A stretch of DNA of 64,000 bases from Betaproteobacteria bacterium (GCA_947457885.1 CANGXU010000003.1:6147-70146), one strand, 5' to 3'; positions 7,040 to 29,101 are shown, counted from the first letter of the stretch. Notes: generated by a model from the sequence alone, not told the origin. Numbers and translations are program-made.

Positions 7040-8089
7040 CTACTCGGGGCGTACGCCGGCGAGCTTCACTGCCGCTGCCCAGCGCACCAGTTCACGCTTC
7101 ATCAGCGCACCGAGTTCTTCCGGGCTGCTGGCGACCGGATCGGTGCCCTCGGCGAGCAGTACGCTGCGCACGTCGGCGGCGGCCATCGTGCGCCGCAGGT
7201 CGGCATTGAGCCGGTCCACGGTCGGCCTGGGTATGTTGGCGGGGCCCACTACGCAGTACCAGCCGGTGATGTCGAGATCCTTGTACCCGGCCTCGACCAG
7301 GGTGCCGACGTCCGGATAGATCGCCGAGCGCTTCGAGCCGGTGGTGGCGATCGCGCGCACGCGTCCACTCTTGACGAACGCGACCATGGTGTTGGGCTGG
7401 CTCACCTGCAGTTCGATCTCTCCGCCGAGCAGCGCATTGAGCGCCGGTCCGCCGCCCTTGTACGGCACATGCAGCAGGTCGATGCCGGCGGCATGCGCGA
7501 GCAGCGCGCCGGTCAGGTGGTTCGAGGTGCCCGGCCCCGCGCTGCCGTAGGAAAGCTTGCCCGGGTTTCGCCTGGCCAGCGCGATCACGTCCTTGATGTT
7601 CTTCGCCGGCAGCGAGGGGTGCGAGACGATCAGCAGGGGCTGCGTGGCGACCAGCGAGATCGGCGAGAAGTCGCGCATCGTGTCGTAGCCGACCTTGGCC
7701 AGTGCGGCCGGGTTGATCGCCAGCGGGCTGGTCGAACCCATCAGCAGCGTGTAGCCGTCGGGCGCGGAACGTGCGACCAGTTCCGCCGCGAGGCTGCCAC
7801 CGCCGCCGGCACGGTTGTCGATGATCACCGGATGGCCGAGGAACTCCTGCAGCCGGCGCCCGATCGGGCGCGCCATGATGTCGATCGCGCCGCCCGCGGC
7901 GAACGGAATGATCATGCGCACGGCCCGCTGCGGGAATGCGGAGTCCTGCGCGCAGGCCTGCGGCAGGCCGGCCACCAGTGCCGTCGACATGACGGCCAGG
8001 ACAGCCAGGTGGCGGCACGCGCGCTGGCGGGTAATCGGCGATAGTGAGGGGGTGTGCAGGTTCAAGGCAGCTACCTCGTGCGTGATCAC
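7040..8089 (-). CDS. Bug/TctC family periplasmic substrate-binding protein
   Basis: AVRMIIPFAAGGAID and VPYKGGGPA follow a signal-like RQRACRHLAVLAVMSTALVAGLPQACAQ. The exact start is uncertain. Confidence 0.8.
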   Translation of the reverse strand: MITHEVAALNLHTPSLSPITRQRACRHLAVLAVMSTALVAGLPQACAQDSAFPQRAVRMIIPFAAGGAIDIMARPIGRRLQEFLGHPVIIDNRAGGGGSLAAELVARSAPDGYTLLMGSTSPLAINPAALAKVGYDTMRDFSPISLVATQPLLIVSHPSLPAKNIKDVIALARRNPGKLSYGSAGPGTSNHLTGALLAHAAGIDLLHVPYKGGGPALNALLGGEIELQVSQPNTMVAFVKSGRVRAIATTGSKRSAIYPDVGTLVEAGYKDLDITGWYCVVGPANIPRPTVDRLNADLRRTMAAADVRSVLLAEGTDPVASSPEELGALMKRELVRWAAAVKLAGVRPE

Positions 8090-17225: not shown

Positions 17226-18251
17226 TCAATCGAGCCGTATCGACAGCTTGCGGATCAGCGGTGCCCAGCGTGCCGCCTCGGAACGGATCAGTGCGGCGAA
17301 TGCTTCCGGGCGGCCGCCGGCGGGGTCCAGCCCGGCGCCGGCAATCCGGCTGCGCGCGTCCGGGTGCGCGAGGATCGCATTGATTGCGCCGTTCAGTCGA
17401 CCGATCAGCGGCCCCGGCGTGCCGGAGGCGACGAGTATGCCGTTCCAGAGCATCGCTTCGAAGCCTGGATAGCCGGATTCGGCGAGCGTGGGCAGGTCGG
17501 GGAACAGCGGATAGCGCGCGGCGCTGGTCACGGCGATCGCGCGCACGCGGCCCGCCTGCAGGTGGGGCGCCAGTGCGGTCGGGGCCGAGAAGACGGCCTG
17601 CGTTTCGTTGCGCGCAACCGAAGCTGCAGCCGGCGGGGCGCCGTTGTACGGGCTGTGCACCGCGTCGAAGCCGGCCACCGAACGGAACAGCTCCATCGTC
17701 AGGTGCGACGAACTGGCGTTGCCGACCGAGGCGTAGGTCAGGCGACCGGCGCCGGCCCTGGCGTGGGCGACCCATTCGGCAACAGTGCGCACTGGCAGGT
17801 CGGCATGGACCGCCAGCAGGTTCGGCGAGGTGCTGGCGACCACCACCGGTGCGAGGTCGCGCGCCGGGTCGTACGGCAGCCTGGCATACAGGAAGGGTGC
17901 GAGCGACAGCGGGCCGTTGAAGCTGATCAGCAGCGTATGGCCGTCGGGTGCCGACTGTGCGCCGGCCGCGGTGGCCACCGTGCCTCCACCGGCTGGCCGG
18001 TTGTCGATCACCACCGGCTGGCCGAAGGCGTCGCGCAGGCGCTCGCCGATCACCCGCGCGACCACGTCGAGCGAGCTGCCCGGGCCGGCGGCGACCAGGA
18101 AGCGCAGCGGGCGCGAAGGCCAGTCCTGGGCGCCGGCCGCGCCCGGCAGCGCGCAAAGCAGCAGCAGCGCGGCGGGCACCGTCAGGACGCGCGCGCCACG
18201 GCTGGCAGATGCGCGGGAACCGGTGCCCGAGCCCGATTCCGGGGCGCTCAC
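17226..18251 (-). CDS. Bug/TctC family periplasmic substrate-binding protein embedded in the arg gene string
   Basis: The in-frame GTG at 18251 overlaps the argF stop (GTGA). Signal LTVPAALLLLCALPGAAGAQ, then PLRFLVAAGPGSSLD and SPYNGAPPA. Confidence 0.75.
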   Translation of the reverse strand: MSAPESGSGTGSRASASRGARVLTVPAALLLLCALPGAAGAQDWPSRPLRFLVAAGPGSSLDVVARVIGERLRDAFGQPVVIDNRPAGGGTVATAAGAQSAPDGHTLLISFNGPLSLAPFLYARLPYDPARDLAPVVVASTSPNLLAVHADLPVRTVAEWVAHARAGAGRLTYASVGNASSSHLTMELFRSVAGFDAVHSPYNGAPPAAASVARNETQAVFSAPTALAPHLQAGRVRAIAVTSAARYPLFPDLPTLAESGYPGFEAMLWNGILVASGTPGPLIGRLNGAINAILAHPDARSRIAGAGLDPAGGRPEAFAALIRSEAARWAPLIRKLSIRLD

Positions 18252-22760: not shown

Positions 22761-23558
22761 TCAAGCCCCGATGAAGCGCGCGCGATAGGCGCTCGGCAGG
22801 TCGGACAGCGCCAGCATCATCGGCAGGTCGGCGACGCCGAAGTCCGGATCCAGTGCAGGCGGTCCGAGGACCTTCCCGCCGCAGCGCAGGTAGCCCTTCA
22901 TCAGTGCCGGAGGCTCGGCTTCGCCGTGCAGGTCGATACGATCGAGGGGCAGGGGACGGCGCGGATGGACACGCCGCTCCAGTCCGCACAGGTGGGTCGC
23001 CCGCAGGGTCTGCCAGAGGTTTGCAGCGTGGGCACCACCGTCGTTCACCGATACGCTGGCGCAACCGATCATGTAGTCGAGCCGCGACCGCTGCATGAAC
23101 TCTGCCAGCGCCGTCCAGAGAAGCAGGATGACCGCTCCCCGGCGCCACTCGGGCGCGGTGCACGAGCGGCCCAGTTCCGCCATCCGAGGCCGCAGCGGAT
23201 CGAGCCGTCTGATGTCGAACTCGCTTTCAGTGTAGAGCGCACCGATGCGCCGCGCTCCCGCCGGGGTCAGTACGCGGTAGGTGCCGACGACTTCGGCTGG
23301 CGAGGCGTCCGAGCCGGCCGTGCGCACCAGCAGGTGTTCGCACGCATCGTCGAATCGATCCTCGTCCACGCCTGGCGGCGTACCTGCGGGCACCGTTATC
23401 CGCGCGCCCATCTCTTCGACGAACACCCGATAGCGCAGCCGCTGTGCGGCGCGCACGTCTTCCTGGTCGGATGCCCAGGCCACTTCCAGCGCGGGCGCAC
23501 GCGGCCTCGGGGGCGCTGCTGCCGCGAAACGTGCCTGTGGGGACGCCGTCGCGAGCAT
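22761..23558 (-). CDS. GNAT-type N-acyltransferase, OlsB / hemolysin-like (N-acyl amino acid synthase family)
   Basis: ATG at 23558, 2 nt after the GT4 stop. RLRYRVFVEEMGA...VVGTYRVL...LYTESEFD...ELGRSC...YMIGCAS...LMKGYLRCG follows the lyso-ornithine-lipid-synthase-like pattern. Confidence 0.7.
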   Translation of the reverse strand: MLATASPQARFAAAAPPRPRAPALEVAWASDQEDVRAAQRLRYRVFVEEMGARITVPAGTPPGVDEDRFDDACEHLLVRTAGSDASPAEVVGTYRVLTPAGARRIGALYTESEFDIRRLDPLRPRMAELGRSCTAPEWRRGAVILLLWTALAEFMQRSRLDYMIGCASVSVNDGGAHAANLWQTLRATHLCGLERRVHPRRPLPLDRIDLHGEAEPPALMKGYLRCGGKVLGPPALDPDFGVADLPMMLALSDLPSAYRARFIGA

Positions 23559-23559
23559 G

Positions 23560-24813
23560 TCAGGCCACTCGCCGCCGGGCCGGTATTGGTGCCGCCGGCC
23601 CAGCATCCGCCGCGCGCAGGACCCCACCCAGCACCGATTCGAAGCGCTCGACCACCGCGTCCCATCCGCAGGTACACGCGGTCGCGCGCGCGCGACGGCC
23701 GATCGCACGGGCCCGTGACCGGTCGCTGGCAAGTACGACGGCACCATCGATGAAGGCGGCGGTGTCGTCATAGGGAGCGAGCAGGCCGTTCTCGCCGGAG
23801 CGGATCAGCCTGGCTGCTGCGGCATAGTCGAATGCCACCACGGGCAGCCCGCTTGCCATCGCCTCGGTGGTGACGTTGCCGAAGGTCTCGGTCAGGCTCG
23901 GGAACAGGAACAGGTCTGCCGAAGCGTAGTGCGCGGCGAGGTCGTCACCGGTGCGCTGGCCGGCCATGATCGCGCCCGGGCAACGCTCAGCGATGCGTGT
24001 CCGCAGCTGTCCGTCGCCGACGACCACCAGCCGTGCCCGCGGGACACGCTGGCGGATGCCGGCGAATGCAGCGACCAGCGCATCCAGATTCTTCTCGGGT
24101 GCGAGGCGTCCGACGCTCAGCACGACCGGGTCCTCGGCGGCTGCGCCCCAGGTCGCGCGCAGCCGCTCGTCGCGACGTGCCGGATCGAAGCGCACCGTGT
24201 CGACGCCGCGCGCCACGACCGTGACATCGTGGAAGTCGCGCGCGGCAAGCTCTCCGCGCAGCGCTTCGGTGGGCACCATTGTCTGCTGCGTGCGGTTGTG
24301 GAAGCGGCGCAGGTAAGCCAGGATGGCCCAGTTCAGCCAGCCCGCACCGTAGTGCGCGCTGTAGGCGTGGAAGTTGGTGCGGAATTCGGAGGTCACCGGC
24401 AGGCCCAGCGACCGCGCGGCGGCCAGCGCCGACCAGCCCAGTGGTCCCTCGGTGGCGATGTGCACCACTTCGGGCGGCTGCCGCGTCCAGGCATCGATGA
24501 GACGGCGCTTGCAGAGCGTCCCCATCTGCAGGCCCGGATAGAACGGCAGCGGCAGGCCGGGCAACAGCATGTCGTCGGCGTCGGGCGAGGCGGCCACGCC
24601 TGACGCGTCGCGCGGACGCTGCGGCGGCGGCAGCAGCCGGACGAGGTGCACCCGATGGCCGCGGCCGCGCAGACCGGCCACCATCGACGCGACTGTCGTG
24701 GCCACGCCGTTCACGTCCGGCGGGTAGGTCTCGGTGACGTAGGCCAGCCGCAGGCGGAGATGCGTCCGTGCGGGCGTGTCGGTTGACGGCGACCATGGGT
24801 TGTCAGCGGGCAT
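23560..24813 (-). CDS. glycosyltransferase family 4 (GT-B, retaining)
   Basis: ATG at 24813. LRLAYVTETYPPDVNGVATTV N-terminal motif and the C-terminal ADLFLFPSLTETFGNVTTEAMASGLPVV (E-x7-E). Confidence 0.85.
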   Translation of the reverse strand: MPADNPWSPSTDTPARTHLRLRLAYVTETYPPDVNGVATTVASMVAGLRGRGHRVHLVRLLPPPQRPRDASGVAASPDADDMLLPGLPLPFYPGLQMGTLCKRRLIDAWTRQPPEVVHIATEGPLGWSALAAARSLGLPVTSEFRTNFHAYSAHYGAGWLNWAILAYLRRFHNRTQQTMVPTEALRGELAARDFHDVTVVARGVDTVRFDPARRDERLRATWGAAAEDPVVLSVGRLAPEKNLDALVAAFAGIRQRVPRARLVVVGDGQLRTRIAERCPGAIMAGQRTGDDLAAHYASADLFLFPSLTETFGNVTTEAMASGLPVVAFDYAAAARLIRSGENGLLAPYDDTAAFIDGAVVLASDRSRARAIGRRARATACTCGWDAVVERFESVLGGVLRAADAGPAAPIPARRRVA

Positions 24814-24866
24814 GGGCTGAGGATGGCGCCCGATTCCTGCAATGTGATGACCGATCCGTGTCCGAC

Positions 24867-24884
24867 GTGACACGAAAGCGTCAC
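24867..24884. promoter_or_regulatory. inverted repeat GTGAC-N8-GTCAC in the divergent GT4 / Mpo1-like promoter region
   Basis: Read directly from the sequence: cgacGTGACacgaaagcGTCACcgag. Confidence 0.25.
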
Positions 24885-24999
24885 CGAGCCTTCATGCAGG
24901 GGCCCCACGATCAAGCCCCGGGGCGGGCGCCACAGTCCGCCCGGGGTGGGCGCCGGTGCAGCAGGCAGCCCGCACATGACAACTCGCAGGAGGGCCGGC

Positions 25000-25590
25000 A
25001 TGAACGATGTACTCAGGGAACTCGCAACGCAGCGCTGGGACGACCACCGCTTCTACCACCACAGCCGGATCAACCAGTGCCTGCATCTGTTGAGCGCCAT
25101 GAGTTTCCTGGTCGCCTACGTGCTGTTGTTCATCGATCCGGCCGCAGCCGCGATTCTCGGCTGGTGCGTGTCGATGACTTCGCGTCAGGCCGGACACTTC
25201 TTCTTCGAGCCGCGCGGCTTCGACGAGGTCAACCGGGTCTCGGACGAATACAAGGAGGCGATCAAGGTCGGCTACAACATCCGCCGGAAGGTGGTGCTGA
25301 TGGCGGCGTGGCTGATGGTGCCGGTCGTTCTCTGGCCGTTGTCGGCCGATGACGCGGGGGCGGGCGAATTCCTGAACAGCCTCGGGCTGTGGTGGCTTGC
25401 CCTGGCGGTGGCCGGCCTGCTGCTGCGCGTCGTGCAGCTGTGGTTCAAGCAGAACCTGCTGACCGGCGTCACCTGGGCACTGAAGATCATCACCGATCCG
25501 TTCCACGACATCGCCCTGTACTACAAAGCCCCCTGGTACGTGCTGCGCGGCGAGTTCATCGATCCGATGCCGCACGTGCGGCATCGCTGA
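25000..25590 (+). CDS. membrane protein, Mpo1/DUF962-like
   Basis: ATG at 25000 follows GGAGGG. YHHSRINQCLH (H-x3-N-x3-H) and AGHFFFEP resemble the Mpo1-like His motifs. Several hydrophobic helices. Confidence 0.5.
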   Translation: MNDVLRELATQRWDDHRFYHHSRINQCLHLLSAMSFLVAYVLLFIDPAAAAILGWCVSMTSRQAGHFFFEPRGFDEVNRVSDEYKEAIKVGYNIRRKVVLMAAWLMVPVVLWPLSADDAGAGEFLNSLGLWWLALAVAGLLLRVVQLWFKQNLLTGVTWALKIITDPFHDIALYYKAPWYVLRGEFIDPMPHVRHR

Positions 25591-27286
25591 AAGGAAGCAG
25601 GCGCTGGCGCAGGGTCTCGACCAGCAGCTGGCGCCGGATCGACCGGTTGCTCACGGCAGGGCTGTCCCACCACCAGCCCTCTTCCTTCATCTGCACGCAG
25701 GCGCGCAGGAACCGGTCGCAGGCCTCGGTGAACTCGGCGTCGCCGTAGTTGAGGCTGAACACGAGGCGACCGGTACCCACCCAGCTCAGCGCCAGCCCAT
25801 GGAGGCGGAGATAGAACTGCAGCATCCAGTTGTAGCGCGATGGCAGCGTGTAGTCGACGGTCCAGATCGACGAAAGATGGGCCACCCGTACCGGTACCCC
25901 GGCCTCGGCGAGCCTGTGGTTGAGGCTCGCTGCCCTCTGGTCCCAGCGCTCGTCGATCCCCGCGTACATCGCCCGCACTTCGGACGTGTCGAGCCGGTCG
26001 AGGAAGGCCTTCATCGTCGCCATCACGTACGGGTGGGAGTTGAAGGTGCCGCGTGCGAAGCAGAGGTCGGCGGGCCGCTCCTCGCGGAAGCGCTTCATCA
26101 GCGCGCTGCGCCCGCAGACCACGCCCACGGGAAGGCCGCCGCCGAGCGTCTTGCCGTAGGTAACCATGTCTGCCTGCACGCCGAAGTATTCCTGCGCGCC
26201 ACCGGGCGCCAGGCGGAACCCGACGAACACCTCGTCGAGGATCAGCACGATGCCGTTGGCGCTGCAGGCCGCGCGCAGACGCTGCAGCCACTCGGTGTAC
26301 CGCGCGCGGTCGAAGCCTGCACGGCGGCCGCTGTCGAGCAGCGAGGAGTCGCCCGGCGCGCCCTTGTTGGGATGCAGCGCCTGCAGCGGATTGACCAGAA
26401 CGCACGCGATGTCCTTGCGGGTGCGCAGCACCTGCAGCGATCGTTCGTCCATGTCGCGAAGCGTGTAGGTCTCGCGGGGCGGCAGCGGGTTTCCCGGCCC
26501 GGGCTGCACGTCTTCCCACCAGCCGTGATACGCGCCGCAGAACCGTACGAGGTGCGTCCGCCGCGTGTGGTAGCGGGCCAGGCGCACCGCCTGCATCACC
26601 GCTTCGGTGCCCGACATGTGGAACGACACCTCGTCGAGGCCGGAGATAGCCTTCAGGCGCTGCGCGTTCTCGAGCACGCACGGGTGGTAGTCGCCCAGGA
26701 CCGGACCGATCGCGCGTGCGCTGGCGACGCCCTCGTCGATGCAGGCCTTGTAGAAGTCGTAGCCGAACAGGTTCACGCCGTACGACCCGGTAAGGTCCAT
26801 CAGCGTGTTGCCGTCTATATCGGTCACGGTCACCCCGGCGGACTCGCGCAGGAAGTGGCCGGCCTGGATATGCCGGCGCAGGTAGGCCTGGTACTGGAAG
26901 GGGACGCGGTAGCGTCCGGTGAACTGCAGGTCGGAGAGCGACTCGGCCGCCTGCAGCGTCATCGCCGAGCCCGAGGGGTAGCGTTGTGCGAACGCGGCGG
27001 CCAGCCGTTCGAAGCCACTGCGGCGGCGCATGACGATATCGGGCGGTGCGCCGTCGCTGGCGAAGAACGCATCCTCTGCGTAGGAATAGCCAGGGATCAT
27101 GCCTGCGACGCGCTTGGCCATTCGGGAATGACCGGCCAGGGAGCGATGCTTGGCGCGCGAGAGTTGCCAGCGCCGCCGCAGTTTCGGGAAAGACCATGCG
27201 ATTGCACAGGATGTTGCTGCCAGGGCTGCAAGGGTTGTCTGCATGGCGGGATCCATGGTTGGGTTACCAACGTGTATCAGCATCAA
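25556..27286 (-). CDS. class-III (GSA-aminomutase-like) PLP aminotransferase with N-terminal membrane anchor and ~130-aa extension
   Basis: HMSGTEAVMQAVRLAR, LILDEVFVGFRL and the PLP lysine in YGKTLGGGLP. N-terminal TTLAALAATSCAIAWSF hydrophobic segment. The start may be 27286, 27256 or 27244. Confidence 0.8.
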   Translation of the reverse strand: MMLIHVGNPTMDPAMQTTLAALAATSCAIAWSFPKLRRRWQLSRAKHRSLAGHSRMAKRVAGMIPGYSYAEDAFFASDGAPPDIVMRRRSGFERLAAAFAQRYPSGSAMTLQAAESLSDLQFTGRYRVPFQYQAYLRRHIQAGHFLRESAGVTVTDIDGNTLMDLTGSYGVNLFGYDFYKACIDEGVASARAIGPVLGDYHPCVLENAQRLKAISGLDEVSFHMSGTEAVMQAVRLARYHTRRTHLVRFCGAYHGWWEDVQPGPGNPLPPRETYTLRDMDERSLQVLRTRKDIACVLVNPLQALHPNKGAPGDSSLLDSGRRAGFDRARYTEWLQRLRAACSANGIVLILDEVFVGFRLAPGGAQEYFGVQADMVTYGKTLGGGLPVGVVCGRSALMKRFREERPADLCFARGTFNSHPYVMATMKAFLDRLDTSEVRAMYAGIDERWDQRAASLNHRLAEAGVPVRVAHLSSIWTVDYTLPSRYNWMLQFYLRLHGLALSWVGTGRLVFSLNYGDAEFTEACDRFLRACVQMKEEGWWWDSPAVSNRSIRRQLLVETLRQRLLPFSDAARAASDR

Positions 27287-27297
27287 TTGACAGTGCC

Positions 27298-28176
27298 GTG
27301 AAAATCTCCCTGATCCGACGATTCTTCGCGCAGGAGGACATCAACTTCCTGCTCTGCAACCGCGTCCCGCGCCGCCTGCTCACCCTTTGCATGGGCTGGT
27401 ACAGCCAGGTGACCCAGCCGTGGGTGGTTCGTATGTCGCTGCGCGCCTGGCAGTGCTTCGGCGACCTGGAACTGCAGGATGCCCGCCAGCGCGAGTTCCG
27501 GTCGTTGCACGACTGCTTCACGCGGGAACTCGTGCCGGGTGCGCGTCCAGTCGCCGCCGATGCATCGCTGATGACCAGCCCGTGCGATGCGATCGTCGGT
27601 GCCTGCGGTACCGTCGAGGACGGCCTTGTGGTCCAGGCCAAGGGGTTCCCGTACGGCATCGATGAACTGTTCGGTGACGCCCGGTCGAGCCTGCCCTACA
27701 ACGATGGCACCTATGTCACGCTGCGCCTGACCTCGGGCATGTACCACCGGTTCCACGCGCCCGATGCCTGCACGGTCGAGCATGTCACCTACCTCAGTGG
27801 CGATACCTGGAACGTGAATCCGGTCGCGCTGCAGCGCATCGAGCGGCTGTTCTGCCGCAACGAGCGGGCGGTGCTGCGGTTGCGGCTGGACACGGGTGGC
27901 TATCCGATTGCCCTGGTGCCGGTGGCCGCGATCCTGGTTGCCAGCATCCGCCTGCATTTCGCCGACGTGCTGCTGCACCTTCGCTACCGTGGGCCGAACG
28001 AGATCCCGTGCGATGCGCGCTTCGAGCGGGGACAGGAGATGGGGTACTTCCAGCACGGCTCGACGATCATCGTGTTCGCGCCACGCGGCTTCACGTTGTG
28101 CGCAGGAGTCGAGCCCGGTCAGCGGATCAGGATGGGTTCCCCGCTGATGGCACTGCCGGTGCAACCCCCTCGCTGA
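27298..28176 (+). CDS. psd: phosphatidylserine decarboxylase proenzyme
   Basis: Pyruvoyl self-cleavage site GYFQHGSTIIVF, plus SPCDA and YHRFHAP motifs. The GTG start at 27298 is inferred (the track ORF extends upstream). Confidence 0.8.
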   Translation: MKISLIRRFFAQEDINFLLCNRVPRRLLTLCMGWYSQVTQPWVVRMSLRAWQCFGDLELQDARQREFRSLHDCFTRELVPGARPVAADASLMTSPCDAIVGACGTVEDGLVVQAKGFPYGIDELFGDARSSLPYNDGTYVTLRLTSGMYHRFHAPDACTVEHVTYLSGDTWNVNPVALQRIERLFCRNERAVLRLRLDTGGYPIALVPVAAILVASIRLHFADVLLHLRYRGPNEIPCDARFERGQEMGYFQHGSTIIVFAPRGFTLCAGVEPGQRIRMGSPLMALPVQPPR

Positions 28177-28179
28177 TCG

Positions 28180-29058
28180 TCAGCCCGCTGGCGAGCGCGC
28201 CTGTGGGCTGACGATCAGCGGCGGTGCCGTGCCCGTCGCTTGGGCCGGCGGCGATCGCGTGGTGCGCGGGTATCCATCGGCCGCCATCGAACCGCTGCGC
28301 ACGATCTCCAGCGATCCGTCCGCGTGCTCCACCAGCGCGGAGAGGCTCTCGACCCAGTCGCCGTCGTTGCAGTACAGGATGCCCTCGATCTCGCGGATCT
28401 CGGCATGGTGAATATGCCCGCAGACGACACCGTGCACGCCGCGCCGGTACGCCTCCCGCGCGAGCGCATGCTCGAAGTCGCTGACATAGCTCACGGCCCG
28501 CTTTACCCGCAGCTTCAGGTAGCTGGAAAGGCTCCAATAGGGCAAGCCGAGGCGGGCTCGCAGCCGGTTGAACCAGCGGTTGAGCCTGAGGATCAGCGTG
28601 TAGGAGGTGTCGCCCGCCAGGGCGAGCCATCGAGCGCACTGGACAACCCCGTCGAACAGGTCGCCGTGGGTGATCCACAGCCGTCGCCCGTCGGCCGTCA
28701 CGTGGACGCAGTCGTCCATCACGTCCACGCCGCCGAAGTTGTGCGCGACATAGCGCCGGGCGAACTCATCGTGGTTACCCGGTATGAAGATCACCCGCGT
28801 GCCCTTGCGCGCCTTGCGCAGGATCTTCTGGACCACGTCGTTGTGCGCCTGCGGCCAGTACCAGTTGCGGCGCAGCTGCCAGCCGTCGATGATGTCGCCG
28901 ACCAGATACAGCGTCTCGCATTCGGTCGTGCGCAGGAACTCGAGCAATGCCGTCGCCTCGCAGCCGGGCGTGCCCAGGTGCAGGTCCGAGATCCACACCG
29001 TGCGGTAGGTGCGTTCGCCGGTGGCGGGGGCTTCGCTTCCTTTGGGCGGTGCATGCAT
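28180..29058 (-). CDS. LpxH-like calcineurin-type metallophosphoesterase (PlcP-like candidate)
   Basis: VWISDLHLGT...LYLVGDIIDGW...IPGNHDE...VCGHIHH metallophosphoesterase motifs, and the W-x-LRRNWYWPQAHNDVVQKIL insert. An alternative GTG start is at 28998. Confidence 0.8.
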   Translation of the reverse strand: MHAPPKGSEAPATGERTYRTVWISDLHLGTPGCEATALLEFLRTTECETLYLVGDIIDGWQLRRNWYWPQAHNDVVQKILRKARKGTRVIFIPGNHDEFARRYVAHNFGGVDVMDDCVHVTADGRRLWITHGDLFDGVVQCARWLALAGDTSYTLILRLNRWFNRLRARLGLPYWSLSSYLKLRVKRAVSYVSDFEHALAREAYRRGVHGVVCGHIHHAEIREIEGILYCNDGDWVESLSALVEHADGSLEIVRSGSMAADGYPRTTRSPPAQATGTAPPLIVSPQARSPAG

Positions 29059-29082: not shown

Positions 29083-29101
29083 ATGACGTCGGCATGACGT
29101 C
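29083..29101 (-). promoter_or_regulatory. 11-bp-phased direct repeats GACGTCAT-gcc-GACGTCAT (Pho-box-like) upstream of the LpxH/PlcP-like gene
   Basis: Minus strand reads GACGTCATgccGACGTCATcatGACTCCGT, then TAAATT (29067-29072) 10 nt after the second repeat and 8 nt before the ATG at 29058. Confidence 0.35.

Follow-up and report, generated by a model that had tools for sequence, protein, structure and literature searches.

A predicted Pho-regulated lipid-remodelling island in a betaproteobacterium and its conserved, uncharacterised gene trio

Layout of the locus

The stretch of DNA analysed here is a 64-kb chromosome segment with 67% G+C from a betaproteobacterium (GCA_947457885.1 CANGXU010000003.1:6147-70146); it is referred to below as the window and numbered from its first base. 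Between positions 22761 and 29058 it carries six lipid-related genes, which an original prediction made from the DNA alone had read as a compact neighbourhood for the remodelling of lipid head groups. Domain and model searches of the window proteins with Pfam and NCBIfam bear out this inventory: all six open reading frames (ORFs) are found at, or a few codons from, their predicted positions, and their families are as called. The genes and the Pho-box-like repeats in the intergenic regions among them are as follows.

22761–23558, minus strand: OlsB-like GNAT N-acyltransferase, 265 amino acids (aa) (PF13444, E 1e-30)
23560–24813, minus strand: GT4 lipid glycosyltransferase, Agt/GpgS-like, 417 aa (PF13439, PF00534, PF13692)
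24848–24862, minus strand: Pho-box-like repeat directed towards the GT4 gene (GACA-N7-GTCA)
24869–24894, plus strand: three Pho-box-like repeats in 11-bp phase, directed towards the Mpo1-like gene (GACA / GTCA / TTCA)
25000–25590, plus strand: distant Mpo1-like (DUF962) integral membrane protein, 196 aa (PF06127, sub-threshold)
25556–27244, minus strand: class-III pyridoxal phosphate aminotransferase, resembling glutamate-1-semialdehyde (GSA) aminomutase (PF00202)
27286–27305, minus strand: aminotransferase-promoter Pho box (TTTTCAC-GGCA-CTGTCAA), containing the GTG start (27298–27300) of the divergent decarboxylase gene
27298–28176, plus strand: phosphatidylserine decarboxylase (PSD) family paralogue of the pyruvoyl type, 292 aa (PF02666, E 2e-55)
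28180–29058, minus strand: PlcP-type phospholipase C, an LpxH-like metallophosphoesterase (PF00149; identity to PA3219 and SMc00171)
29084–29098, minus strand: plcP-promoter Pho box (ACGTCAT-GCCG-ACGTCAT), followed 10 bp later by TAAATT

One boundary differs from the original prediction, in which the aminotransferase gene extended from 25556 to 27286. The gene and its family stand, but judged by an alignment with 19 homologues the most likely start is MQTTLAA (27244) or a codon 12 bases before it (27256). A start at the TTG at 27286 is unlikely because the homologues begin in the MQTTLAA region and because this position sits within the promoter Pho box. At its other end the aminotransferase gene is overlapped by 35 bp by the 3' end of the convergent Mpo1-like gene. 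As had been described, a single base separates the GT4 stop codon (TGA, 23560–23562) from the GNAT start codon (ATG, 23556–23558), a spacing that makes co-transcription of the GNAT gene from the GT4 Pho-box promoter probable.

The metallophosphoesterase is of the PlcP type

LpxH-like metallophosphoesterases include both LpxH and the phospholipases C named PlcP, and the assignment of the protein encoded at 28180–29058 depends on suitable references. Two were found by tblastn against the plasmid collection PLSDB, in records that are really chromosomal DNA. The Sinorhizobium meliloti reference is the orthologue of SMc00171, recognised by its neighbours sinR and sinI. The Pseudomonas aeruginosa reference (NZ_CP137508.1) overlaps a GT-1/GT4 gene that is followed by cyaB, which identifies the pair as PA3219 and PA3218. 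Characterised PlcPs have been published as 46% identical to each other (PMC8528852), and the mutual identity of our two references, 46.6%, agrees with this value and thus confirms what they are. CP090106.1, the record that supplied the S. meliloti gene, bears the title 'S. meliloti plasmid pSymB'; with a length of 3.7 Mb and with sinI, sinR and the orthologue of SMc00171 on it, the record is evidently a mislabelled chromosome. Small P. aeruginosa 'plasmids' with plcP-agt1-cyaB likewise look like chromosomal fragments.

The window metallophosphoesterase is 56% identical to P. aeruginosa PlcP over 236 aa without gaps (E 7e-101) and 50% identical to S. meliloti PlcP over 272 aa (E 3e-97), so that each reference is nearer to the window protein than to the other reference. 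Its identity to Escherichia coli LpxH is 30% over 118 residues (E 4e-8), and the true PlcPs are equally distant from that protein. Both LpxH equivalog models are missed by a wide margin (NF003743, 47.5 bits against a cut-off of 134; TIGR01854, 44 bits against 190), and solved LpxH structures give 24–31 bits (E about 1e-6). The metal-binding residues D25, H27, D55, N95, H131, H215 and H217, which make up complete calcineurin-like motifs, are invariant. A DGW-x-L...YWPQ signature is shared by the window protein and the PlcPs of P. aeruginosa and S. meliloti and is not found in LpxH. The segment W-x-LRRNWYWPQAH had been taken for an insert relative to E. coli-type LpxH; this view does not hold, as the segment aligns to the corresponding part of LpxH, is just 3 residues longer, and is the PlcP signature motif itself. 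There is no second LpxH-like gene within the window.

The suggestion of a PlcP-type enzyme rather than LpxH is thus upheld by the identity to characterised PlcPs and by the failure of both LpxH cut-offs, and by its sequence relationships the product of 28180–29058 is a PlcP phospholipase C, not LpxH. The island also contains an Agt-like GT4, at a distance of 3.4 kb from plcP and in a separate transcription unit, and at a Sphingosinicella locus (L065) a plcP-like gene adjoins a GT4 gene.

Conservation of a four-gene core

To place the locus among its relatives, a collection with one genome for each GTDB species was searched with an alignment of aminotransferase homologues. The search gave at least 588 confirmed matches, and 80 loci were retrieved; presence was counted by tblastn with all window proteins in the 40 loci that have full 10-kb flanks. 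These fully flanked loci come from Burkholderiales, Rhodocyclaceae, Bradyrhizobium, Sphingosinicella and Roseomonas. PSD, aminotransferase, Mpo1-like protein and GT4 are each encoded in 40/40. The core layout has PSD divergent from the aminotransferase (in all 40), the Mpo1-like gene convergent with the aminotransferase, and GT4 next, and the order and orientation of the first three are unchanged in nearly all of the loci. The remaining genes are variable: plcP is present in 17/40 and GNAT in 5/40, while murJ and the malonyl-CoA decarboxylase (MCD) gene that flanks the island in the window are absent from all 40. The clustering is therefore not due to chance, yet the conserved unit is a core of four genes rather than six. 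Co-occurrence across genomes, which had been put forward as a check, holds for this core and not for plcP or GNAT, and the adjacency to murJ, originally regarded as a feature of the neighbourhood, is incidental.

Carriers among the Sphaerotilaceae and Comamonadaceae are Rubrivivax, Roseateles/Pelomonas, Ideonella, Piscinibacter, Variovorax, Polaromonas, Rhodoferax, Curvibacter and Hydrogenophaga; further carriers are found in Rhodocyclaceae, Bradyrhizobium, Sphingosinicella and Roseomonas. Sphingomonas parapaucimobilis has PSD, aminotransferase, Mpo1-like and methyltransferase genes, with no GT4 in the 9-kb flank examined. Three metagenome bins titled 'Bordetella parapertussis' or 'Chitinophaga pinensis' (L001, L031, L074) contain a cassette of the Burkholderiales type, and their taxon labels look wrong.

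To identify companions, the ORFs of the loci were all clustered, and families that recurred were annotated. In 16/40 loci a major facilitator superfamily protein that passes the LplT equivalog cut-off (487 bits against 297) is encoded beside GT4. Other companions are UDP-glucose dehydrogenase (7/40), a UgtP-like GT28 (5/40) and PhoX (6/40), with PPK2, GDPD and a porin in individual loci. The alphaproteobacterial loci add a methyltransferase before or after the Mpo1-like gene, for which the best match by far is the phospholipid N-methyltransferase PmtA (122–161 bits, the next family reaching at most 83). In Bradyrhizobium, GT4, the PmtA-like methyltransferase and the Mpo1-like gene stand on one strand behind a single Pho box, with PSD outside this operon. 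The lplT gene (for example L020:6788-8053 and about 30 other loci) is convergent to GT4, lacks its usual partner aas and often has a Pho box of its own, which suggests that these Burkholderiales import or flip lysolipids as part of their response to phosphate stress.

Predicted Pho boxes

The core of a Pho box was defined as GTCA-N7-GTCA with at most one mismatch, and in related loci it was counted in sense orientation within 200 bp upstream of a gene, for which the chance expectation is 8%. Just one exact GTCA-N7-GTCA exists in the window, and this is the plcP box, which lies 25 bp upstream of its gene. Six of the 24 window matches with up to one mismatch fall within the 309 bp that make up the three intergenic regions, where 0.12 would be expected (P about 3e-9), and each of the six is oriented towards its gene. 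Sense boxes are likewise frequent in related loci, upstream of the aminotransferase (73/85), Mpo1-like (67/76), GT4 (44/71) and plcP (27/34) genes and of the companions lplT (19/31), ugd (10/14), GT28 (8/11) and GNAT (7/10). For comparison, the positive control phoX has them in 8/9 cases and an unrelated Bug gene in 1/10.

The motif between PSD and aminotransferase is itself conserved as TTTCAT-N4-CTGTCAA, a gap of about 10 bp, and TA-A, that is, a pair of PhoB-type direct repeats in 11-bp phase and, after them, a −10 element; at this position Bradyrhizobium has a perfect CTGTCATGAATCTGTCAG. No sigma-70 promoter with consensus −35 and −10 elements is found in the island region, which fits with activator-dependent promoters. 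A search with the E. coli consensus (CTGTCAT-N4-CTGTCAT, up to 3 mismatches) gave no match in the cluster and an overall count at chance level, the local boxes being 4 mismatches away from it. From these elements we infer control by PhoB of the plcP, GT4, Mpo1-like and aminotransferase promoters. With the identity of PlcP and the Agt-like GT4, the boxes support the interpretation given to the locus from the outset, that of lipid renovation in response to phosphate starvation.

The other encoded proteins

The GT4 of the window is 35% identical to P. aeruginosa Agt1 (PA3218) over 375 aa, nearly its full length (E 3e-44). Since characterised Agts are 35–41% identical to one another (PMC8528852), this value falls within their own range. 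The best NCBIfam match is GpgS, the synthase of N-acetylglucosaminyl (GlcNAc)-phosphatidylglycerol, at 138 bits against a cut-off of 480. Judged by these matches the protein is a lipid head-group glycosyltransferase, and in view of the similarity to GpgS its acceptor need not be diacylglycerol.

The GNAT protein aligns with OlsB models from end to end (positions 6–249 of 256) and scores 146 bits against a cut-off of 350. The low score weakens the OlsB assignment without excluding it, because the models were built on alphaproteobacterial proteins. Identity is 34% to the sole S. meliloti homologue and 51–54% to homologues in Ralstonia and Variovorax. No OlsA partner is found at the locus, where the neighbours of the GNAT gene are murJ and GT4, just as the original prediction had it. 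In some species olsB and olsA are unlinked.

The aminotransferase has an N-terminal extension of about 135 aa, in which a hydrophobic anchor is followed by a basic stretch. The extension is specific to the family: an exhaustive search with the N-terminal 136 aa returned 611 representatives, each of them a member of this family or a fragment of one, and no other architectures. A 774-aa protein (P0056) that appeared to be an aminotransferase fusion was rejected as an artefact of gene calling, in which the reading frame runs on through the antisense strand of the Mpo1-like gene. K379 is invariant in the homologue alignment. The protein misses the HemL equivalog TIGR00713 (166 bits against 527) and has the anchored extension in addition, and on this evidence it is not HemL, which is soluble and about 430 aa long. 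Its best solved relative is the aminotransferase domain of MycA, a mycosubtilin synthase (6KFM, 165 bits), GSA aminomutase structures reaching at most 126 bits; further solved relatives are C-6' sugar aminotransferases and NeoN. The reactions of the MycA domain, the C-6' enzymes and NeoN, which aminate carbonyls on lipids or sugars, are a precedent for the chemistry proposed below.

The PSD paralogue passes the general model TIGR00163 (147 bits against a cut-off of 111.75) and misses the specific PSD equivalogs (120–128 bits against 285–371); its score against E. coli PSD is 96 bits. The GST self-cleavage motif is present (FQHGST), and His150 corresponds to the catalytic His144 of the E. coli enzyme. 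The position of the phosphate-contacting Tyr137 is occupied by Arg143, a residue found there in 15% of true PSDs. Immediately after PSD, and in the same direction, Bradyrhizobium nitroreducens has a gene for a NUDIX hydrolase (L061:8447-9055).

The third member of what we call the trio, the Mpo1-like protein, scores 18.6–18.8 bits with PF06127, for which the gathering score is 24, and is thus a distant relative and not a member by the curated rule. The match is sub-threshold in 30/30 family members (best E 4.5e-5). H16, H20, H29, H66, E70, D166 and D170 are invariant in the family. An AlphaFold2 model is all-helical (pLDDT 83); a Foldseek search found no fold match for it in the PDB (best E 1.1) and so gave no functional information. 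The P. aeruginosa record NZ_CP137508.1 has an annotated Mpo1-like gene of 105 aa two genes downstream of plcP-agt1-cyaB (L089:7471-7788). Pairwise comparison of its product with the window protein gave no significant similarity, so that the link is a lead only.

Proposed function

We put at about 70% the probability that the six genes form a PhoB-controlled lipid-remodelling island that swaps phospholipids for phosphorus-free lipids, with the trio of PSD, aminotransferase and Mpo1-like protein possibly building an amine-bearing glycolipid. The components of this proposal differ in strength. That the locus is a Pho-regulated lipid-remodelling island with a true PlcP seems to us highly probable; that the trio makes an amine-bearing, phosphorus-free lipid is an even call; and an exact order of oxidation, transamination and decarboxylation is doubtful.

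In the proposed pathway, PlcP would strip the phosphorylated head group off phospholipids to give diacylglycerol, and GT4 would glycosylate diacylglycerol or a lipid derived from it, while the GNAT, if of the OlsB type, would make the first intermediate of an amino-acid lipid. The Mpo1-like protein might then oxidise a head-group hydroxyl or an alpha-hydroxy-acid carbon to a carbonyl, the aminotransferase could turn that carbonyl into an amine, and the PSD-like pyruvoyl enzyme could remove the carboxyl group adjoining the amine. In alphaproteobacteria the PmtA-like methyltransferase would N-methylate the amine to give a head resembling that of phosphatidylcholine (PC). This would yield a glycolipid that has an amine but no phosphorus and that replaces phosphatidylethanolamine (PE) or PC. 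The substrates of Mpo1, an Fe2+ dioxygenase, are alpha-hydroxy acids; enzymes of class III convert carbonyls to amines and back; and pyruvoyl PSDs decarboxylate lipid-attached alpha-amino acids. Oxidation, transamination and decarboxylation make the most economical model because the chemistries of the three families meet at a single carbon.

Two reports show that the phosphate-starvation response does give rise to oxidised glycolipids. Keto-glucuronosyl-diacylglycerol accumulates in phosphate-starved Burkholderia cenocepacia (10.1101/2023.05.30.542800), and P. aeruginosa has a lipid of unknown origin that is 2 Da lighter than glucuronosyl-diacylglycerol (PMC8528852). We considered as the main model a lipid-level route like that of Arn, from 4-keto-glucuronic acid to 4-amino-4-deoxy-L-arabinose (Ara4N), and dropped it, as a pyruvoyl enzyme of the PSD type cannot decarboxylate a beta-keto or beta-amino acid.

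Several observations weigh against the proposed pathway or parts of it. GNAT and plcP are not constant members of the cassette. Sense-oriented boxes upstream of PSD are at background level (8/83), and the PSD start codon lies within the aminotransferase Pho box, an arrangement that recurs in more than 60 related loci with TTTCAT or CTGTCAT supplying the PSD ATG. Because PSD has no sense box of its own and its start codon is inside the box of its neighbour, it could be repressed by PhoB, or unregulated, instead of being co-induced. Judging by the residues for the use of phosphatidylserine (PS) that the protein keeps, its substrate may simply be PS. The Mpo1-like assignment, sub-threshold and without solved-fold support, is weak, and the best structural relative of the aminotransferase points to beta-ketoacyl-carrier protein, not to a sugar, as the kind of substrate acted upon. 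Finally, the head group has to be left unspecified, because pyruvoyl decarboxylases require amine and carboxylate to share a carbon, which is impossible in a pyranosidic uronic acid.

Some of these points are what would be expected if PSD were an ordinary paralogue with PhoB on its promoter. The divergent pair would then be a switch that lowers PE synthesis while GT4, the Mpo1-like protein and the aminotransferase, with the methyltransferase where there is one, make an amino-sugar diacylglycerol. The Pho box that overlaps the PSD start and points away from it, the background frequency of PSD sense boxes, the passing of TIGR00163 with retention of the phosphate and carboxylate contact positions, and the Bradyrhizobium operon of GT4, methyltransferase and Mpo1-like genes that excludes PSD are all in line with this explanation, as are the C-6' sugar aminotransferases among the solved relatives and the keto-glycolipids of phosphate-starved bacteria (10.1101/2023.05.30.542800). 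However, the adjacency of PSD and aminotransferase in 40/40 loci and across two proteobacterial classes is more than regulatory convenience usually explains. An extra PSD expressed solely in phosphate-replete conditions would have no obvious use, and the carrier taxa probably also have a short housekeeping psd beside pssA. We therefore regard the switch as unlikely. A catabolic trio, in which PSD converts PS to PE, the aminotransferase deaminates the ethanolamine head and an Mpo1-like dioxygenase oxidises the product for salvage of phosphorus, nitrogen and carbon, appears improbable. The scavenging genes phoX, GDPD and PPK2 and the lysophospholipid importer LplT do accompany the island, and terminal amines, that of ethanolamine among them, are within the scope of class-III enzymes. 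Yet PlcP and the phosphatases already release phosphate, GT4 is constant, and the Bradyrhizobium operon joins GT4 and the Mpo1-like gene to a PmtA-like N-methyltransferase; methylation and glycosylation are biosynthetic steps, which disfavours salvage.

The relationship to MycA, whose domain aminates beta-ketoacyl-carrier protein, raises the alternative that the aminotransferase and Mpo1-like protein act on acyl chains instead of head groups, by formation of an amino fatty acid from a 3-oxoacyl or 2-oxo fatty acid, or by alpha-oxidation of a 2-hydroxy fatty acid, and contribute to a glycerol-free aminolipid that is acylated by the GNAT and glycosylated by GT4. The only characterised Mpo1 works on free 2-hydroxy fatty acids (Pfam description), and the window has an OlsB-like GNAT; but a GNAT is near the core in just 5/40 loci, the cassette has no conserved carrier protein or acyl-activating enzyme, and PlcP, UDP-glucose dehydrogenase and the Agt-like GT4 indicate glycolipids based on diacylglycerol, which makes acyl chains a decidedly improbable target. 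Scarcely credible is a chance neighbourhood of housekeeping envelope genes, in which psd would serve the synthesis of PE, LpxH that of lipid A, HemL that of haem and GT4 that of a polysaccharide. Public annotations (LpxH, glutamate-1-semialdehyde aminomutase, archaetidylserine decarboxylase) and the adjoining murJ would favour it; the present data contradict it, as the LpxH and HemL cut-offs are missed widely, the PlcP identity is strong, Pho boxes are present, and the cassette is conserved in loci of which none has murJ or MCD. The phosphorus-free glycolipid pathway is our preferred explanation of the locus.

Flanking genes and origin of the island

The genes around the island are housekeeping genes, with rpsT and murJ on one side and the malonyl-CoA decarboxylase gene, ribF and ileS on the other. 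The flanks of one relative (L081) read argD-argF, rpsT, murJ and, beyond the island, MCD, ribF, ileS, lspA and ispH, and a metagenomic contig of a near-identical relative has exactly the synteny of the window. Membership of the MCD gene in the island was considered and rejected, since it stands beside the island only in the closest relatives and in 0/40 loci elsewhere. Because the flanks on the murJ and ribF-ileS sides never accompany the cassette in other taxa, the island was probably inserted or moved as one block into this housekeeping stretch. It shows no G+C anomaly within the window. No phoX, lplT, ugd or GT28 gene is found in the 64 kb. The window also contains four paralogous genes for periplasmic binding proteins of the Bug/TctC family (1129–2025, 2057–2950, 7049–7948 and 17229–18200), as is typical of Comamonadaceae and Alcaligenaceae-like genomes.

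Significance

The replacement of phospholipids by phosphorus-free lipids is a major route of bacterial survival in phosphate scarcity, and it changes susceptibility to antibiotics and phages. The known toolkit comprises PlcP-Agt glycolipids, ornithine lipids, diacylglyceryl trimethylhomoserine (DGTS) and sulfoquinovosyl diacylglycerol (SQDG). Many freshwater and soil Burkholderiales, Bradyrhizobium and sphingomonads appear to couple this toolkit to three more conserved membrane enzymes that are predicted to be Pho-controlled. No paper on a Pho-controlled cassette of PSD, aminotransferase and Mpo1-like genes was found in the open-access literature searched, which agrees with the earlier opinion that the combination is uncharacterised. 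We thus consider plcP, GT4 and the OlsB-like gene as new members of a known response and the trio as uncharacterised; that its product belongs to a lipid class of its own is a realistic possibility. Tentatively, and at less than even odds, this would be an undescribed class of phosphorus-free lipid with a primary or, in alphaproteobacteria, methylated amine head, a glycolipid mimic of PE or PC that is synthesised on the lipid by the trio and GT4 and that many Burkholderiales of fresh water and soil, and Bradyrhizobium, would deploy under phosphate depletion.

If an amine-bearing glycolipid is indeed made, it would constitute a lipid class not described before and provide a surrogate of PE or PC by a new route, and Mpo1-like proteins might be the missing oxidases behind the keto-glucuronosyl glycolipids of phosphate-starved Burkholderia and Pseudomonas. 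Our analysis also corrects a systematic mis-annotation, in that PlcPs are publicly named 'LpxH' and the aminotransferase 'glutamate-1-semialdehyde aminomutase'; members of the cassette are found annotated as LpxH, HemL, asd or hypothetical protein. Culturable carriers are available for experiments: Variovorax, Curvibacter lanceolatus ATCC 14669, Piscinibacter defluvii, Pelomonas sp. V22, several Bradyrhizobium and Sphingomonas parapaucimobilis YK209.

Comparison with known systems

The closest parallel is the PlcP-Agt pathway, described for S. meliloti (SMc00171), SAR11, Phaeobacter, P. aeruginosa (PA3219, PA3218, PA0842) and B. cenocepacia (BCAL2364-2366). The window shares with it PlcP, an Agt1-like GT4 and Pho boxes on both, and loci related to the window have UDP-glucose dehydrogenase and phoX as companions. 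Unlike in the PlcP-Agt operons, plcP and GT4 stand apart in the window, each with its own Pho-box promoter, and there is no dagK. A further difference is that the GT4 is tied instead to three genes found in no described PlcP-Agt locus, those for the PSD paralogue, the aminotransferase and the Mpo1-like protein.

The combination of a GT4 with amine-exposing enzymes, and with a putative flippase or transporter alongside, recalls GpgSDF of P. aeruginosa, which makes glucosaminyl-phosphatidylglycerol (PMC12713373), and HexSDF of Clostridioides difficile. In contrast to these systems, the window locus has no deacetylase, and the amine would be introduced by transamination rather than by deacetylation of GlcNAc. 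As the locus is predicted to be Pho-regulated and is linked to PlcP, a phosphorus-free acceptor is implied. With the OlsB/OlsA pathway of ornithine-lipid synthesis the window GNAT shares PF13444, the end-to-end model alignment, 34% identity to the S. meliloti homologue and a Pho-box promoter. It differs in scoring below the equivalog cut-off, in the lack of an adjacent olsA and in being an occasional neighbour of the core (5/40).

In the Psd-PmtA pathway, which leads from PS to PE to PC, the cluster finds counterparts for its type-I-like pyruvoyl PSD, with the GST motif and the equivalent of His144, and for the PmtA-like N-methyltransferase of alphaproteobacteria. Both cluster proteins are, however, paralogues below the specific equivalog cut-offs, and no PssA is linked to them. 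Their position in a Pho-box cassette with the aminotransferase, Mpo1-like protein and GT4 suggests a non-phospholipid substrate. By analogy, the trio may also follow the logic of the Arn pathway (UDP-glucuronic acid to L-Ara4N) and of aminoglycoside 6'-amination (NeoQ/NeoN, GenQ/GenB), where oxidation is followed by transamination, with or without decarboxylation. The enzyme families for oxidation and decarboxylation in the trio differ from those of both routes, and since all three proteins are membrane-associated, their chemistry would take place on a lipid and not on a nucleotide sugar.

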